Assembly (NCBI GenBank): GCA_035379625.1
Contig: DAOSVM010000003.1
Span: forward strand, 334-64,333
DNA: 64,000 nt
Reading direction: 5' to 3'
Source: Ignavibacteriales bacterium
GTDB taxonomy: Bacteria; Bacteroidota; Ignavibacteria; Ignavibacteriales; DAOSCP01
The translations under genes were made by a program, and so were the position numbers. The stretch's first letter is position 1. Each line of letters opens with the position of its first letter. Positions 10,098-49,579 of the stretch are shown piece by piece. Below the pieces are notes generated by a model. That model was given only the letters and a program-made list of their open reading frames with translations. It searched no databases and had not been told where the DNA came from.

Positions 10098-11684
10098 ATG
10101 TATAGAAATTATTTTATTTTATCAAGGTATATAAAAGAACTAAATAAACTTTTAGTCGGCTCAAAAATATTAAATGCTTTTTCTTTTAAAAAAGATATAT
10201 TAAATATTACCTTAATCAAATCGTCTCAATTTTTCACGTTGGAATTTTCAGTTAATTCAGGTTTCCCATATATAAGAATAATAGATAACGAAATTAAACC
10301 TAAGAACTTTGTTAAAGTTTTTGAAGAATTACAAAACACCATTATTAACAATATCACTATATCTAACAGTGACAGAATTATTAAATTTGAAATAAATAAT
10401 TACAACTTATTTTTTACTATTCGTGGTAAATATACTAATGTCTATTTATTATCTTCTTCATTTACAAGCTTCAAGAAAGAAGAAGATGATTTTTTATTTC
10501 AATTTCATAAAGAACTTCTAAACCATAATTTTGTAAACGATTTAAGCTTTAAAATACCAACTGAGAATAATCTTAATAATGATGAATTAGTAAACTTAAT
10601 CAGATTTAAATATTCTTTTATTTCAAAAGATATTTTAAATTTTACAAAACATATTTATAACGAAATCTCTCTAACAAATATATTAAAAGTTATAGAGAAA
10701 ATTTATTCATCTAATCTAGTAATTATCAAAAATAGAAGTAGCGTAATTTATACTATCAAAGATTTTGCATTAGTTGAAGGTCAAATTTATGAATTCAATA
10801 ATGTTAAGGATGCAATTAATTATTTTGTTAAAGAAACCTATTTACAAAATGATTTCAATATTTTATATAAAAATGTTGATAAATTTATTAAAAATGAATT
10901 AAGTAAAATATCTAATTTGCTTAATAAACTAAAATCATTATTGGAGACTCCATCAAAAGAAGATTATTATAGACAAATTGCTAATTTATTGCTTATTAAC
11001 TTACATAAAATTCAAAAAGGAAAAGAAGAAATAGAATTAGAAAATATTTATGATAACTCCACTATCAAAATAAAATTAAACCCAAAATATACCCCCAAAG
11101 ATAATGTTGATTATTATTTCAAAAAACAAAAAGAAGAAAAAAAATTAAGAGAAGTTACTAAAGAAAAATTATTAAAATTGACTAAAGAATATGAAAGTTT
11201 ACAAAATAATTTACAAAAACTTGAAAAAATTAGTAATTATGAATTATTAAAAGATTTTGCAAAACAATTTAATATAAGAACTGTTAAAGTTGAAAATAAT
11301 AAGCCTAATAAAACTGATAAGTTTAGACATTTTATTATAAACAATCGATATCATTTATACTTAGGAAAGGATAATGAAACAAACGATTTATTAACAATTA
11401 AATATGCAAGGCCAAATGATATTTGGTTACACGTAAAAGATGCACCAAGTGCTCACGGAATATTAAGAAAAGATAGTTTAAAGGAAAATATCCCTTTAAA
11501 AGTTCTTGAAAAAGCTGCGTCTATTATAGCTTACAATAGCAAGCAAAAAGGAAGTACATTAGTACCAGTTATTTGCACAAGTAAGAAATATATATCAAAA
11601 AATAAACATATGGAACCTGGACAAGTAAAAGTACTCAAAGAAGAAATAGTCTTGCTTGTTAAACCTTCGTTAGATGTCAATTAA
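10098..11684 (+). CDS. NFACT-family / RqcH-like (fibronectin-binding protein A-like) protein with DUF814 domain
   Basis: The C-terminal DUF814/NFACT-R signature (NRYHLYLGKDNETNDLLT...DIWLHVKDAPSAHGIL) is preceded by a coiled-coil region. Confidence 0.7.
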   Translation: MYRNYFILSRYIKELNKLLVGSKILNAFSFKKDILNITLIKSSQFFTLEFSVNSGFPYIRIIDNEIKPKNFVKVFEELQNTIINNITISNSDRIIKFEINNYNLFFTIRGKYTNVYLLSSSFTSFKKEEDDFLFQFHKELLNHNFVNDLSFKIPTENNLNNDELVNLIRFKYSFISKDILNFTKHIYNEISLTNILKVIEKIYSSNLVIIKNRSSVIYTIKDFALVEGQIYEFNNVKDAINYFVKETYLQNDFNILYKNVDKFIKNELSKISNLLNKLKSLLETPSKEDYYRQIANLLLINLHKIQKGKEEIELENIYDNSTIKIKLNPKYTPKDNVDYYFKKQKEEKKLREVTKEKLLKLTKEYESLQNNLQKLEKISNYELLKDFAKQFNIRTVKVENNKPNKTDKFRHFIINNRYHLYLGKDNETNDLLTIKYARPNDIWLHVKDAPSAHGILRKDSLKENIPLKVLEKAASIIAYNSKQKGSTLVPVICTSKKYISKNKHMEPGQVKVLKEEIVLLVKPSLDVN

Positions 11685-16394: not shown

Positions 16395-16715
16395 AGTTTC
16401 ACCTATTATTTTATTTTATAATAAATTATTATTAGTTTATATTATATTTTTTTATTATAAATATTTTATTTATATTTAATATTTATATATAAAATCACCT
16501 AATAATAAATCAAATTATGAGTTACTAATAATAACTCTTTTTTTTAATAGTAATTGTGTAAATAACCATTTATATTTTTTTAAAGTAATTATCTTTTCTT
16601 TTTAGTTGATTTAATAATTAAATTTTAATATTATTTCTGTTAGCATATGTAATAAATAGGGTTGTTGTAAAATATATGTTGGGAACATTTTGATGAAAGG
16701 TTATGAATACAAAAT

Positions 16716-16737
16716 CATGCTTATACTGTCCGAGCTA
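16716..16737. repeat. Solo terminal-repeat copy of the TAGCTCAGAC...TAAGCTTA element family
   Basis: catgcttatactgtccgagcta matches the right terminal repeat of copy A (24103-24124) at 19 of 22 positions. As in copies A and B, an A-run and a terminator hairpin follow it. Confidence 0.7.
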
Positions 16738-16744
16738 AATAGAA

Positions 16745-16773
16745 ATAAAAAAAGCTGCCTTTTTAAGACAGCC
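16745..16773 (-). terminator. Rho-independent terminator of queD
   Basis: On the minus strand there is a 7-bp stem, GCUGUCU/AGGCAGC (one G-U pair), with loop UAAAA and a following U8 run, immediately after the queD stop codon. Confidence 0.7.
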
Positions 16774-16779
16774 TATTTT

Positions 16780-20055: not shown

Positions 20056-21462
20056 ATGAGTATTGATAAAAAGAATATTAATTTTAAAGATTTTACAAAA
20101 TCACATGAATATAATTATAAAGAAGAAGAGAAGAAAAAAATAAGGTTAATAATTGTTTCAGGCTCGTTAGCTTTGGTATCTTTTTTATTAATTGTATTTA
20201 CCTTACCGTATACTGTTTTATCTTGGAATGGCTTATTTGTTTATACAACAGTAATTGCCTTGACAGTATTTCTTTTAATCTTACTTTTAAGATATTTTGG
20301 TATATTAATTTTATCATATATAAATGTTGTTAAATATACATATGCTGAAGTACCTAATTTTTTCCCATTTGTATCCATTATTGTTCCTGCGTACAACGAA
20401 GGAGTAACAATATTTGATTCTGTAAATTCATTACTCAACATAGATTATCCTAATTTTGAAGTAATAATTGTAAATGACGGTTCTACTGATGATACTGCTG
20501 AACAGGCTCAGAAATTAGTCGGTTTACATAAAGGTAAATATAATAATTTAATACGCGTTAGTCTTATTAATAAGAAAAACGGTGGTAAATCAAAAGCATT
20601 AAATACAGGGATACAATATTCGAAAGCTGAATTTGTTGTCTGTATGGATGGTGATTCGATTTTGTCACCAGAAACTTTAAAATTAGGGATAAGGCATTTT
20701 ACAAATCCTGAAATAGGTGCCGTTGCTGGGAATGTAAAAGTTATTAATCGTCATAAACTTATCACAAAATTGCAGGCTCTTGAATATATCGAAGGGCTTA
20801 ATATGGCCAGAAACGCACAAAGTTTTTTACAAACAGTTAATATTATTCCTGGTCCAATTGGTATTTTCAGGAAAAAAGCCATCATATCAGCTGGTTGGTA
20901 TGATAGTGATACTTTTGCAGAGGATGCAGATTTAACATTAAAAATTGTTGAAGCAGGATGGAAAGTTACATATGAACCAATGGCTATTTCATATACAGAA
21001 GCTCCTGAGAAATTATATAACCTATTAAAACAGAGATATCGTTGGACACGTGGGATTTTACAAGCACTACGTAAGCACAAACATAGCCTTTTCTCACCTA
21101 CAAAAAATTTACCAAATTTTTTTGTTTTATGGTCAATGTTTTATGAAGCATTAATTTGGCCTACTATGAATCTTATTGCAAACATTTTTTTTATAGTTGT
21201 TGCTTTATTTTTTGGAATGTCAAATTTAATATTTTATTGGTGGGTTACAATTACTATTTTAGATGTTGTTACAGCATTATTTTGTGTAGCTGTTGAAGCA
21301 GAGGAATTTAACTTAGTTTTTTATGCTATAATATACAGATTGTTCTTTATAATGATTATCGATGTAACAAAAGTAATGGCTACAATTGAAGAATTTATTG
21401 GTTTGGGTATGAATTGGGGAAAATTGGAGCGAGTTGGTTTACTAAAGCCACAAACTCAATAA
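20056..21462 (+). CDS. Membrane-embedded family-2 glycosyltransferase (PgaC/IcaA/NodC-like processive synthase)
   Basis: GT2 motifs VNDGSTDDT and DGDS, the ED motif (AEDADL) and QRYRWTRG (QxxRW), flanked by N- and C-terminal TM segments. Confidence 0.85.
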   Translation: MSIDKKNINFKDFTKSHEYNYKEEEKKKIRLIIVSGSLALVSFLLIVFTLPYTVLSWNGLFVYTTVIALTVFLLILLLRYFGILILSYINVVKYTYAEVPNFFPFVSIIVPAYNEGVTIFDSVNSLLNIDYPNFEVIIVNDGSTDDTAEQAQKLVGLHKGKYNNLIRVSLINKKNGGKSKALNTGIQYSKAEFVVCMDGDSILSPETLKLGIRHFTNPEIGAVAGNVKVINRHKLITKLQALEYIEGLNMARNAQSFLQTVNIIPGPIGIFRKKAIISAGWYDSDTFAEDADLTLKIVEAGWKVTYEPMAISYTEAPEKLYNLLKQRYRWTRGILQALRKHKHSLFSPTKNLPNFFVLWSMFYEALIWPTMNLIANIFFIVVALFFGMSNLIFYWWVTITILDVVTALFCVAVEAEEFNLVFYAIIYRLFFIMIIDVTKVMATIEEFIGLGMNWGKLERVGLLKPQTQ

Positions 21463-23546: not shown

Positions 23547-23554
23547 TTTTGAAG

Positions 23555-23582
23555 GCTCTCTTAAAAGGAGAGCTTTTTTTTT
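23555..23582 (+). terminator. Rho-independent terminator of trxA
   Basis: GCTCTC/GAGAGC stem, an A-rich loop and then T9. Confidence 0.8.
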
Positions 23583-23588
23583 ATTTAT

Positions 23589-24124
23589 TAGCTCAGACGG
23601 TGTAAGCTTAAAGCTCGTGCGCACGAAGGCGCACGGGCAGGCTAACGCCAAAAATATGGTAGATTAATTAAAGCATATCTTACATAATATCAACGACATA
23701 CAACATTTATGCATCTACCTAAATAACTATTTATTAAAAATTTTCCAAAGTAATACCAAACTTTAATAATATTAAAATATTTTCGGGATTACAATATAAT
23801 TGTATTTTCGATATATTCACTTGTTCTAAAAATATATTTGTATTTGCAATATAATTGTATATATGATATATCGGCAATTATCAATAATATATTTGTAAAT
23901 ACAATATAATTGTTTTACGATATAATAGAAAATGCAATTATATTACAAAAATAATTGTATCAATTTTAAGCTGCCACGCATTTAAGAAAAATTAGAATAT
24001 TAAGGCCTCAAAGCACCGCTATTTGTAAGGTGTCTAAGAGAAGAGTTTTGCGGGCCGTTCCGGCCCGCTGCCCCTTGCGGCATGACGAATGCCGCAAGGG
24101 GCTAAGCTTATACTGTCTGAGCTA
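23589..24124. repeat. Copy A of a composite intergenic element (22-nt terminal inverted repeats, three GC-rich hairpins, 55-bp phased AT repeats); MITE/BIME/inverton-like, unclassified
   Basis: Terminal inverted repeats are TAGCTCAGACGGTGTAAGCTTA (23589-23610) and the reverse complement of 24103-24124. Hairpins lie at 23613-23638, 24050-24068 and 24070-24102. A second copy is at 48787-49525. There is no credible ORF. Confidence 0.85.
23791..23913. repeat. Three 55-bp-phased repeats, each carrying the palindrome (A/G)CAAT-ATA-ATTGT
   Basis: The palindrome starts at 23791, 23846 and 23901, exactly 55 bp apart. TATATTTG (TAnnTTTG-like) lies at 23833-23840 and 23888-23895, also 55 bp apart. Confidence 0.8.
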
Positions 24125-24143
24125 TATATTTTATTTAATTTTT

Positions 24144-24182
24144 AAAATAAAAAAAGGCAAGCTCGCTTTTTGCTCGCCTGCC
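24144..24182 (-). terminator. Rho-independent terminator of sdhB
   Basis: On the minus strand the stem is GGCAGGC/GCUUGCC (one G-U pair), followed by a U-rich run, about 30 nt after the sdhB stop. Confidence 0.65.
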
Positions 24183-24210: not shown

Positions 24211-24984
24211 TTATAACTCAACATTATTTGAGCTAAGTTTAGCTTTAATGTATTCACGATTTAATCTAGCAATATGTGAAACTGGAATTCCTTTTGGACA
24301 TTCGGCTTCACAGGCATAAGTATTTGAGCAGTAACCAAAGCCTTCAGCATCCATAGTTTTAACCATCTTTTCAACTCTTTCTTTTCTTTCAACTTGACCT
24401 TGTGGTAAAAGAGCTAATTGGGAAACTTTGGCACTTACAAAAAGCATAGCCGAAGCATTAGGACATGTAGCAACGCATGCACCACAACCAATACAAGCTG
24501 CTGCTTCAAAAGCTTCCAAAGCTGTATCTTTATGAATTGGAATATTATTAGCATCACGTGCAGAGCCAGTATTCACAGAAACATAACCACCAGCTTGCAT
24601 AATTCTATCAAAAGCGGAACGATCAACTACCAAATCTTTGATAATTGGGAATGGTTTAGCTCTCCATGGCTCAATAACAATAGTATCGCCATCATTGAAA
24701 TGTCTCATATGTAACTGGCATGTTGTAATACCTTGTAAAGGACCATGAGCTCTACCATTGATAAACATACCACAGCTACCACAAATACCTTCACGGCAAT
24801 CGTGCTCGAAGGCAATAGGATCTTCACCATTTTTTTGTAACTGTTCGTTAAGAACATCTAACATTTCAAGAAAAGAAGCATCTGTTGAAATGCCAGTTAC
24901 TTTATATTCTTTAAATTCGCCTTTTTTGCTATTTCTTGGCTGACGCCATATCTTTAGTGTTAATGATAATTTCTTGCTAGCCAT
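24211..24984 (-). CDS. sdhB: Succinate dehydrogenase/fumarate reductase iron-sulfur subunit
   Basis: 2Fe-2S ([10 protein letters not shown]), 4Fe-4S ([12 protein letters not shown]) and 3Fe-4S ([12 protein letters not shown]) cysteine clusters. Confidence 0.95.
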
Positions 24985-45530: not shown

Positions 45531-47156
45531 ATGGAAAATTACACAACCTTTGTTGATAAAGCTTATGATAGTTATTCAAAAAAAGACTTTCATAAAGCTA
45601 TAGAACTAATCAACGAAGCTGAAAAACTTTTACCTAAAGATGCATCTATTACTGAAGGTGCTAGCATCTACAATTTCCGTGGTTTCTGTTATTTATCGTT
45701 AAATGAAATTGAAAAAGCAAAAGCTGAGTTCGAAGAAGCTTTAAACCTAAATCCCACCTCTCCACAAGCTTGTGTCGGTTTAGGTGAAGTTTTTTATTTA
45801 AATCGTAATGATGTTGAAGCAAAAAGAATGTATGAATACGCTTTAAATTACGATCCACAAAATCCACTAGCTCTTGCTGGTCTTAAAAAAGTTAATGCTG
45901 AATTAGGCCTTAATCCAGAAGATAATTCCTTGATAGATAATAAAAATCAAGATTTAATTGATAGCTTAGTTGAAGAAGCATATCAATTATTTAATAAACG
46001 TAAATTTGAAGAAGCACTAATTAAACTTGCTGAAGTTGAAAAATTATATAAAGTCAGAACTGCAGAGGTTGAAAACTTCAAAGGTATTATTTATTTAGCA
46101 TTAAATGACAAAAATAAAGCAAAATTGTCTTTTGAAGTTGCTCTTCAATTAAATCCTAAATCTTCCCAAGCTTGCGCTGGCTTAGGTGAAATTTTCTACT
46201 TAGAAAACAAAGATGAAGAAGCTAAAAAAATGTTCGAATGGGCTGTCTTCCATAATCCTCAAAATCCTATGGCTGTAAATGGATTAGCAAAAGTAAATAA
46301 AGCCCTTGGCAAACCTATTTATGATAACTCTCTTCAAGGTGATGAAATAAAGAAAAAATTAAACTTTGAAGTATTATTCGCTGATGCATATCAGGCTTTC
46401 CAAGATAAAAACTTCAATACTGCATTAGAAAGAATTGAAGAGTTTGAAAAAGCCGTTCGTGTTGCTGCATTAAATTTCAAAGGTTTTAATTATTTAGCAT
46501 TAAATGATATTGAAAGCGCTAAAAAATGTTTTGAAGAAGCTCTCGAACTAGATGAGACATCCTCTCAAGCTTGTGCTGGCTTAGGTGAAATTTTCTACTT
46601 ACAAAAAGATGATGTATCTGCAAAAAAAATGTATGAATTTGCAGTAGCATATAACCCGGAAAATAAATTTGCCATTGAAGGTTTAGCTAAAGTAAACAAA
46701 AGCTTAAATTTACCCAAGGAACATAACAATTTAATAGTTGAAGATATTTTAAGCGATGAAAAATTAGCTGCTATGATTACTCAAGCATATGAAGCTTTCG
46801 ATAAGAAAGATTACAAAGAAGCCTTACAAATTTTAAATGATTTTGAAAATAAAGCAATTGATTTATCAGTATCTGCTGATGTAAGTATTAAAAATTTTAA
46901 AGGCTATATATATTTAGGTTTAGGTGAAACAGAAAAAGCAAAAGAACAATTTGAAAGTGCTTTGGAACTTGACCCTGAATCTTCCCAAGCTTGTGCTGGT
47001 TTAGGAGAATGTCTGTATATTGCTGGTGACGACCAAGCAGCTAAAAAAATGTTTGAGTGGAGCATAAAACATAACCCTGGTAATGAAGTTGCTTACGCTG
47101 GTTTGCATAAGGTAAATAAAAATTTAGGATTGCCTATAAACCATAAAAGTTTCTAA
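45531..47156 (+). CDS. TPR-repeat protein built from four tandem modules of about 135 aa
   Basis: The block SSQACAGLGE(I/V)FYL...AKKM(F/Y)E(W/F)A...NP.N...GL.KVNK.LGLP recurs four times. Repetition is also visible at the DNA level around 45770, 46165, 46565 and 46985. Confidence 0.8.
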   Translation: MENYTTFVDKAYDSYSKKDFHKAIELINEAEKLLPKDASITEGASIYNFRGFCYLSLNEIEKAKAEFEEALNLNPTSPQACVGLGEVFYLNRNDVEAKRMYEYALNYDPQNPLALAGLKKVNAELGLNPEDNSLIDNKNQDLIDSLVEEAYQLFNKRKFEEALIKLAEVEKLYKVRTAEVENFKGIIYLALNDKNKAKLSFEVALQLNPKSSQACAGLGEIFYLENKDEEAKKMFEWAVFHNPQNPMAVNGLAKVNKALGKPIYDNSLQGDEIKKKLNFEVLFADAYQAFQDKNFNTALERIEEFEKAVRVAALNFKGFNYLALNDIESAKKCFEEALELDETSSQACAGLGEIFYLQKDDVSAKKMYEFAVAYNPENKFAIEGLAKVNKSLNLPKEHNNLIVEDILSDEKLAAMITQAYEAFDKKDYKEALQILNDFENKAIDLSVSADVSIKNFKGYIYLGLGETEKAKEQFESALELDPESSQACAGLGECLYIAGDDQAAKKMFEWSIKHNPGNEVAYAGLHKVNKNLGLPINHKSF

Positions 47157-47187
47157 TTTTATCAAATATAAAATTAATCAATATTAA

Positions 47188-47218
47188 AGCTGTCATTTAC
47201 GACAGCTTTTTATTTTTT
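47188..47218 (+). terminator. Rho-independent terminator of the TPR gene
   Basis: AGCTGTC/GACAGCT 7-bp stem, loop ATTTAC, then a T-rich run. Confidence 0.8.
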
Positions 47219-48754: not shown

Positions 48755-48780
48755 GCTCTCTTTCGAAGGGAGCTTTTTTT
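48755..48780 (+). terminator. Rho-independent terminator of the permease gene
   Basis: GCTCTCTT/AAGGGAGC stem (one G-U pair) followed by T7. It resembles the trxA terminator. Confidence 0.75.
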
Positions 48781-48786
48781 ATATAT

Positions 48787-49525
48787 TAGCTCAGACAGTA
48801 TAAGCTTAAGCCCCTTGCAGCTTGAAGAAAGCCGCAAGGGGCAGCGGGCCGGAACGGCCCGCTAAAATGATAAACCCTAACATAAGCAACACCTCAGATA
48901 CTCAGAAAGTTAAACCTAATATGTTATCGACTAAATAAAAATACAATTTTAAGATTACACAAATTCCAAAATTATTACTACAAAAAAGCAAACTCAAATT
49001 TACCATCTTCATAAACGTGCTTACCACTCCCCCGGGCAAAAAAATTGCTTCCGAAATGATAAAAATTATTTTTTTATTTTTATTTGCTGCTAAATTGTTA
49101 TTTCTGCTCTTTTTATAATTTTATTGTAATTAGAATTGTATCGTAAATACAATATCTTTGCCAATAATATATCGTATATACAATAATATAGTAAGAGCAA
49201 ATATATTTTTTGAAATTGCAATTATATCGTATATACAATAATATCGTGGATACAAATATTTTTTAAAGAACTACCAATATATCGTATTCGCAATTATTTT
49301 GTATGGCCTATTATATTGCAATAACGATATTTATTTACTCCCTTTTTACGTAAGCTAATTTTTCATAGAAAAATATTAAAACAACATTTAGTTATTTATT
49401 TAAATGTAAAAATATAAAACATATTGTTCAAATCTATTGAAAGGTCTTGGTGAAAATATTTTTGGGCGTCAGCCCGCCCGTGCGCCGCTCGGCGCACGGG
49501 CTTTATGCTTACACCGTCTGAGCTA
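48787..49525. repeat. Copy B of the composite intergenic element, interior inverted relative to copy A
   Basis: Terminal inverted repeats are TAGCTCAGACAGTATAAGCTTA (48787-48808) and the reverse complement of 49504-49525. Hairpins lie at 48810-48842, 48844-48862 and 49476-49501. The module order is the mirror image of copy A. Confidence 0.85.
49139..49296. repeat. Phased repeats with core TATCGTATATACAATA (three copies at exact 55-bp spacing plus one out of phase)
   Basis: ATCGTA(T/A)A... cores start at 49171, 49226 and 49281, 55 bp apart. A further one-mismatch copy starts at 49140. Confidence 0.8.
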
Positions 49526-49542
49526 ATAAAGAGTACTTTTTT

Positions 49543-49579
49543 AAAAATAAAAAAAGCAAGCTCGCTTACGCTCGCCTGC
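49543..49579 (-). terminator. Rho-independent terminator of the RND pump gene
   Basis: On the minus strand the stem is GCAGGC/GCUUGC (one G-U pair), followed by a U-rich run. By hand alignment it matches the sdhB terminator module at about 41 of 47 positions. Confidence 0.6.

Follow-up and report, generated by a model that had tools for sequence, protein, structure and literature searches.

Two loci in the 64,000-nt stretch of Ignavibacteriales DNA analysed here (the window), A (23589-24124, 536 bp) and B (48787-49525, 739 bp), raise the question of whether a segment of DNA is switched between two orientations or whether copies of a mobile repeat lie in opposite directions. The original prediction had described flanks that are homologous in the same orientation around an inverted interior, and had read this as a duplicated cassette whose interior flips by recombination between terminal inverted repeats. 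Its description was confirmed. The right flanks, for which about 41 of 47 matching positions had been counted, gave 41 identities in a 46-column local alignment (score 32), and the left-flank terminators, put at roughly three-quarters identical, could be aligned over 53 columns at about 72% identity (score 24). When 3000 60-mers were sampled at random from the window, scores this high came only from samples that overlapped the locus itself or its partner, and flank comparisons in the opposite orientation scored near background. When B was reverse-complemented, copy A could be aligned with it across 516 columns, 81% of them identical, with large indels, and a repeat search paired the two loci as inverted repeats (I1-I3), confirming the inverted interior. 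The G/G variant of the terminal repeat with its hairpin indeed lies on the left in A and on the right in B, and the window is, as had been stated, free of recombinases, no recombinase or transposase domain being found in any of its large ORFs or called genes. The interpretation fared differently, as neither the duplication of a cassette nor the flipping of its interior was supported by the comparisons described below. A and B are probably separate copies of a MITE-like, non-coding, high-copy mosaic repeat linked to terminator modules.

The window has a GC content of about 27% and a gene content of chromosomal housekeeping type. The 21-nt terminal-repeat pattern TAGCTCAGACRGTRTAAGCTT matches it five times, against 0.01 matches expected by chance, at 23589(+) and 24104(-) in A, at 48787(+) and 49505(-) in B and as a solo repeat at 16717-16737(-). 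The two repeats of A agree at 19 of 21 positions, as the inverted repeats of an inverton would. We refer to the terminus with the G/G repeat variant and the GTGCGC hairpin as the g-end and to the terminus with GCGGGCCGTTCCGGCCCGC plus GCCCCTTGCGGC..GCCGCAAGGGGC as the h-end; on the plus strand, A runs from g to h and B from h to g. Both copies lie between convergent genes, A between thioredoxin and sdhB, and B between an amino-acid permease gene (bcaP) and an RND permease gene. In copy A, the g-end repeat (23589-23609, plus strand, TAGCTCAGACGGTGTAAGCTT) is followed by subterminal GC-rich hairpins at 23610-23655(+), (C)GTGCGC..GCGCACG and then GGC-TAAC-GCC. A central AT-rich array at 23774-23930(+), delimited by repeat search and alignments, comprises about three 55-bp tandem units holding the TACAAT-ATA-ATTGTA dyad and TATATTTG motifs. 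The h-end hairpins GCGGGCC-GTTC-CGGCCCGC and GCCCCTTGCGGCAT-GACGA-ATGCCGCAAGGGGC occupy 24050-24103(+), and the A/A variant of the repeat, recognised by its match to the pattern, closes the element at 24104-24124(-). Copy B (48787-49525, 739 bp) lies on the minus strand, opposite to A, with its h-end repeat at 48787-48807 and hairpins at 48808-48866, its central 55-bp repeats at 49166-49317, and its g-end hairpins at 49460-49504 and repeat at 49505-49525. The dyad (window 23790-23804) has a 6-3-6 form, occurs once per 55-bp unit and is loosely conserved among copies; dyads phased at 55 bp could be a candidate site for a dimeric DNA-binding protein. A repeat of another kind was seen at 45671-47120, where four tandem units of about 400 nt (65-72% identity) lie within a 541-aa TPR-repeat gene.

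Each terminus comprises about 80 nt, in which the 21-nt repeat, itself foldable, is followed by a long and a short GC-rich hairpin. At the g-end, TAGCTCAGAC was unchanged across 30 aligned copies, and the family consensus of the subterminal hairpin was GCCCGTGCGCC-loop-GGCGCACGGGC. The h-end of A has a predicted RNA fold of -53.1 kcal/mol (z = -9.3). In the second h-end hairpin, four base pairs change on both sides among 39 distinct copies, one of them being A-U in 20 copies and G-C in 16, and a variant of the whole stem, GCCCACGTGCGGC/GCCGCACGTGGGC, also exists; the observed covariation values were reached by none of 500 shuffles. This covariation shows that the terminal hairpins are under selection. 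The first h-end hairpin is invariant because it served as the search pattern.

If the interior were a switch, both orientations should be met at one and the same locus. At locus A, 11 independent assemblies, including those of strains about 4% diverged within the element, showed a single orientation at the level of consensus assemblies, in which a rare flipped minority would not show, and the g-end or the G/G variant adjoined thioredoxin in every one of them. Two further partial Logan contigs of this locus stop inside the repeat and have the same orientation. The orientation of locus B matched in the readable assemblies, and six other loci of the family, each followed in 2-3 datasets, kept the same flank at the h-end. 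Orientation is fixed across these assemblies. Moreover, the neighbours of A and B present their 3' ends to the element, so a flipped promoter would have no gene to activate, and promoter-like motifs in the AT-rich interior were no more frequent than chance predicts. Of the properties of an inverton other than the inverted repeats, none of the three sought at A and B was found, namely a second orientation, a recombinase in the window, and promoter or coding control of an adjacent gene. The original prediction had named as refuting it the lack of any alternative orientation together with many copies devoid of the homologous flanks; both were observed in the assemblies and loci compared, and by that standard the inverton is refuted.

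A metagenome search with an exact 24-mer taken from the h-end returned 42 stretches, mostly from one sample, and copies were also found in two genome bins (L003 and L009); as hits were chosen by this exact 24-mer, both the copy census and the invariance of the first hairpin are biased. The copies occur in both orientations and represent about 35 distinct loci with unrelated flanks on Ignavibacteriales-type metagenome contigs, and the same repeat is present in an Ignavibacteriales genome bin. Contigs of 90-130 kb carry up to three copies each, and in one population a copy occurs roughly every 30-40 kb. Both ends were located in about 30 copies, which range from 262 to 739 bp, and 17 full copies could be aligned throughout, with the termini and the central 55-bp AT-rich array common to them; across this alignment the family looks mosaic. 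The copy tables behind these counts were read by eye from alignments rather than computed. When a genome collection was scanned with the terminal-repeat pattern containing two N, L001, L003 and L009 were real among the matches listed, the others listed being mostly chance matches in unrelated phyla, and no family copies were found in the viral contigs searched. Membership of A and B in this dispersed family is clear.

The elements contain no ORF longer than 68 aa, and, apart from weak terminator look-alikes, searching Rfam returned no family at either the gathering threshold or E<=1. Beyond the three terminal hairpins, the interior showed no conserved helices. The window encodes no RAYT (IS200/IS605-like Y1) transposase, and no autonomous element or transposase bounded by family repeats was present in the fetched loci; at the solo repeats of L022, L047 and L060, searched for a parent IS, only short non-coding stretches adjoin. 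TA is found on both sides of A, B and the L003 copy, whereas in many h-ends GAGCC is succeeded by AA, CA or AT; direct repeats of greater length are absent from the element edges. Terminal inverted repeats, small size, the lack of a transposase ORF and dispersal in both orientations are all features of MITEs. Some copies adjoin tRNA genes or the 5' ends of genes, and tRNA-like sequences were noted by eye within 100-150 nt of copies in L003 (~2270), L048 (~3000), L032 (~1700) and L054 (~12900). Short variants with little or no central array (L031 5828-6089, 262 bp; L052 1355-1776, 422 bp) differ in their g-end hairpin, which is CCGCACAAC-loop-GTTGTGCGG with a T-run after it. The copies at L009 2979-3533 and L061 2599-3138 have almost identical g-end flanks and unrelated h-end flanks, which points to a rearrangement at the element or else to chimeric joining of a metagenome contig via the repeat; metagenome contigs may be chimeric at repeats.

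A third trace of the family in the window is one-ended. After queD, a solo terminal repeat with two mismatches and a terminator of a third class together occupy 16717-16774 on the minus strand, the repeat lying 14 nt past the T-run of the class 3 terminator (GGCTGTCTT-AAAAA-GGCAGC). The solo repeat is adjoined by a 320-nt AT-rich stretch and then by the start of a 127-aa UPF0158-like ORF. We considered whether 16395-16716 is a further copy of the element and dropped it as not recognisable as one, since this DNA showed no clear homology to the interiors of A and B, only low-complexity alignments, and no second terminal repeat was found within 16395-16774. One-ended copies resembling 16395-16774 were also seen in L001, L022, L047 and L060.

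Comparison within the family also bears on the duplication that had been proposed. Copy A is 86% identical to the copy in L003, another genome, over 446 nt, and only 68% identical to B in the interior. Hence B is not a flipped duplicate of A, and on this divergence A and B are assigned to different core subfamilies and not to a recent duplication.

The homology of the flanks calls for an explanation of its own. On both sides of A and B the flanks are predicted to fold as intrinsic terminators reading toward the element, and they can be assigned to two classes, class 1 (GCTCTCTT..AGGGAGC-T7-9, with a conserved U.G wobble) and class 2 (GCAGGCGAGC-loop-GCGAGCTTGC-T7, with a conserved tandem G.A/A.G mismatch). 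The class 1 module of A, identified by terminator scan and RNA fold (-14.1 kcal/mol, z = -3.3), lies at 23551-23588(+) after the thioredoxin gene (stop 23546) and consists of the hairpin GGCTCTCTT-AAAA-GGAGAGC, T9 and ATTTAT, after which the g-end repeat begins. On the opposite side, the class 2 module of A, identified by RNA fold (-17.8 kcal/mol, z = -3.9), reads from sdhB (stop 24211) toward the element at 24139-24182 on the minus strand, as GGCAGGCGAGC-AAAAA-GCGAGCTTGCC, T7 and ATTTTAAAAA. The class 1 module of B, recognised by fold and homology, follows the amino-acid permease gene (stop 48746) at 48755-48786(+), and its class 2 module together with a conserved spacer (ATAAAGAGTAC-T6A5TA7-GCAAGCTCGC-TTAC-GCTCGCCTGC) reads from the RND permease gene (stop 49601) toward the element at 49526-49579(-). 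Class 1 is found at the g-end and class 2 at the h-end of A, and class 1 at the h-end and class 2 at the g-end of B. The class 2 module of B, spacer included, is nearly identical to L042 11622-11682, the neighbour of an unrelated gene for an outer-membrane beta-barrel, and it is nearer to this L042b module than to that of A. Convergence of ordinary terminators was considered as a source of the flank match and rejected, because one and the same U.G wobble is common to the class 1 copies, both the G.A/A.G mismatch and the spacer are common to those of class 2, and the terminator-like hairpins that L042 has away from elements are unrelated in sequence. Six convincing intrinsic terminators were found in the window, five of which adjoin a terminal repeat and one of which, at 47186-47209, is free.

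The same modules recur at other copies of the family. A hairpin with a T-run lies within about 40 nt of 20 of the 38 distinct h-ends and 9 of the 28 g-ends, and the order is invariably hairpin, T7-9, a gap of 5-8 nt (often via ATTTTAAAA and TTCAT) and then the repeat, so that incoming transcription is predicted to stop before the element. Class 1 was found at six h-ends and two g-ends, eight independent element ends that share the same U.G wobble, and class 2 at seven h-ends and four g-ends, 11 independent element ends; class 2 homology ends directly after the hairpin. Modules of classes 1, 2 and 3 thus stand at either end of the core in several combinations, a modularity of the REP/BIME type, and since they abut either end, class 1 and class 2 with the core placed either way between them is one of several combinations and not a pair of switch states. 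In about 0.5 Mb of fetched loci, every exact match to GCAAGCTCGC was located within about 50 nt of an element end, and exact class 1 matches were likewise near element ends except for one inside a coding region; these searches used exact 10-12-mers in DNA picked around elements, and diverged free modules could be missed by them. In the DNA examined, class 1 and class 2 modules otherwise occur only directly outside element ends, and at either end. L042a, an unrelated locus flanked by rplM and a glycosyltransferase gene, repeats the module arrangement of B; its class 2-like module is turned toward the 5' end of rplM and is therefore not a native terminator there. None of the five doubly flanked copies had symmetric modules. 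The recurrence of the modules at non-orthologous loci is evident from these copies, and the homologous flanks of A and B are accordingly best described, from their sequences, as recurrent terminator-hairpin modules and not as ancestral host DNA.

The corresponding sites in relatives agree with this description. In bcaP orthologues (86%, 84% and 73% identity) the convergent spacers measure 24-46 nt and the hairpin is absent or unrelated, and sdhB orthologues (93% and 85% identity) have different terminators; neither the element nor a class 1 or class 2 module is present at the sdhB and bcaP 3' ends of those relatives. In the closest relatives (L062, L063 and L067-L069), the neighbour past sdhB is not that of the window, and neither is the one past bcaP. 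As the genes on the far side differ as well, A and B lie at synteny breakpoints and these sites do not qualify as clean empty sites. A site with conserved synteny but without the element was not encountered, and the element ends given here are therefore provisional. As synteny breakpoints, A and B bound a 25-kb block (gene ends at 24211 and 48746).

How the modules came to accompany the core can be answered with less confidence than what they are. We favour outer modules that are either co-mobilised with the core or targets that the core occupies near-obligately. The core would be moved in trans by a transposase encoded elsewhere, and would either insert a few nucleotides downstream of terminator T-runs or carry captured terminators along; the inward- and outward-facing hairpins may then insulate the element transcriptionally. 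It is conceivable, although we propose it only tentatively, that the whole acts as a self-insulated mobile cassette which deposits ready-made class 1 and class 2 intrinsic terminators between convergent genes. Elsewhere in the host genome convergent genes are 0-50 nt apart and terminators are few; in the window, for instance, convergent genes are 0 nt apart at 21462/21463 and overlap by 4 nt at 11681-11684.

An unlikely explanation is that the modules are targets and nothing more, the core having inserted, in either orientation, into the spacer of a pre-existing repeated cassette of class 1 module, AT spacer and class 2 module between convergent genes. The near-constant junction between module and repeat, 5-8 nt past the T-run or past the TTTTAAAA motif, would be expected of such insertion, as would the unique, native-looking hairpins that occupy the same position at L023, L048 and L057. 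Many cores lack modules altogether, which also agrees with it, as the core alone thus appears to be the mobile unit. However, an unoccupied class 1 or class 2 module was found neither in the roughly 0.5 Mb of loci nor in the 64-kb window, the matching gene ends in relatives are without a cassette of this kind, and the orientation of the class 2-like module toward a gene's 5' side at L042a also counts against it. The alternative offered by the original prediction, independent insertions into a conserved terminator pair, can be judged on the same evidence: a mobile element lying in opposite orientations beside terminators is much closer to our reading than the switch, but the terminator pair is itself repeated DNA.

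Less probable still is a single inversion of 25 kb, in which recombination between inverted copies with symmetric modules flipped the block from sdh to bcaP and swapped the outer modules. With M1 and M2 for the class 1 and class 2 modules, one crossover would turn M1-g..h-M1 and M2-h..g-M2 into M1-g..h-M2 and M1-h..g-M2, which is the present arrangement, and both the position of the two copies at synteny breakpoints relative to the nearest relatives and the mosaic appearance of the family, consistent with recombination between copies, would fit. Against this stand the lack of symmetry in all five doubly flanked copies, the recurrence of B's M1/M2 arrangement at the unrelated L042a, the shortness of the identical stretches shared by A and B, the longest of which measure only a few tens of nucleotides, and the finding that no assembly contains the block un-inverted. 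Finally, that recombination between the 21-nt repeats flips the interior, A and B being a duplicated cassette in opposite states, is very improbable despite inverted repeats bounding 0.5-0.7 kb of AT-rich DNA with promoter-like motifs and flanks alike in the same orientation, given one orientation at A in diverged strains and stability at six other loci, no recombinase encoded in the window, neighbouring genes whose 3' ends and terminators are directed at the element from either side, the dozens of copies that lie at unrelated sites, many lacking these flanks, and the assignment of A and B to different subfamilies.

The interpretation of A and B as separate copies of a mosaic repeat carries a caution for inverton searches, since inverted repeats, homologous flanks and opposite interiors at two loci can together mimic an inverton; what needs checking is whether reads or strains differ in orientation at one and the same locus. 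It also defines an abundant repeat family for uncultured Ignavibacteriales, one that marks synteny breakpoints and is tied to intrinsic-terminator hairpins. Should the modules move together with the core, the family would illustrate a way for terminators to become distributed over a genome, and if the cassette proposed above is real, the repeat would be a vehicle that spreads terminators and not only a passenger that lands beside them. A practical consequence concerns assembly. Logan contig SRR4236673_2740 (24,719 nt; L015, L019) corresponds exactly to the A-to-B interval and ends a few nucleotides inside the terminal repeats; the repeat thus breaks de Bruijn (short-read) assemblies. Bacterial MITEs are the subject of a general review (PMC3184786). 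Our literature searches returned no paper on Ignavibacteria MITEs or hairpin repeats and nothing specific on terminator-targeting IS elements, and the repeat family is apparently undescribed so far.

Several known systems share part of this organisation. Invertons include the phase-variable invertible promoters of Bacteroides and the fim and hin switches, and the present loci resemble them in having short inverted repeats around a few hundred bp of AT-rich DNA. In contrast to invertons, no second orientation was seen in the assemblies, there is no invertase nearby and no downstream gene to regulate, and the family has dozens of dispersed copies. A second comparison is with elements that target terminators or palindromes, as bacterial class C group II introns target terminators and IS1397 and ISKpn1 insert into REP loops. 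The strong link to a hairpin plus T-run at a near-constant distance is shared with these elements, whereas the ribozyme and reverse transcriptase of class C group II introns are lacking here (Rfam negative), and the present family, unlike terminator-targeting elements, has terminal inverted repeats and no ORF, while the hairpins form a repeated family of their own that is tied to the element.

The closest parallels are found among small non-coding repeats. The Correia repeat-enclosed elements of Neisseria are bacterial MITEs of about 0.1-0.16 kb. Like these and other MITEs, the members of the present family are numerous, non-coding intergenic elements with inverted repeats at their termini, which lack an internal transposase and lie in either orientation; several copies have TA at both ends, and the elements can supply terminator-like hairpins. 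The family differs from Correia elements in its much larger size (0.5-0.74 kb), in its structured termini of about 80 nt with covarying GC hairpins, and in its central 55-bp array and accessory outer terminator modules. The REP/BIME of enterobacteria and the intergenic mosaic elements of Neisseria are, like the hairpins here, GC-rich extragenic palindromes that often lie between convergent genes, and REP/BIME are known preferred targets of some insertion sequences. The use of few modules in varied orders and orientations is common to REP/BIME and the present family, but here the hairpins flank or sit inside a long element bounded by terminal inverted repeats, a RAYT-type transposase is absent from the window, and the outer modules carry a T-run like true intrinsic terminators. 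In conclusion, these comparisons suggest that the family works like a MITE combined with BIME-like modularity.
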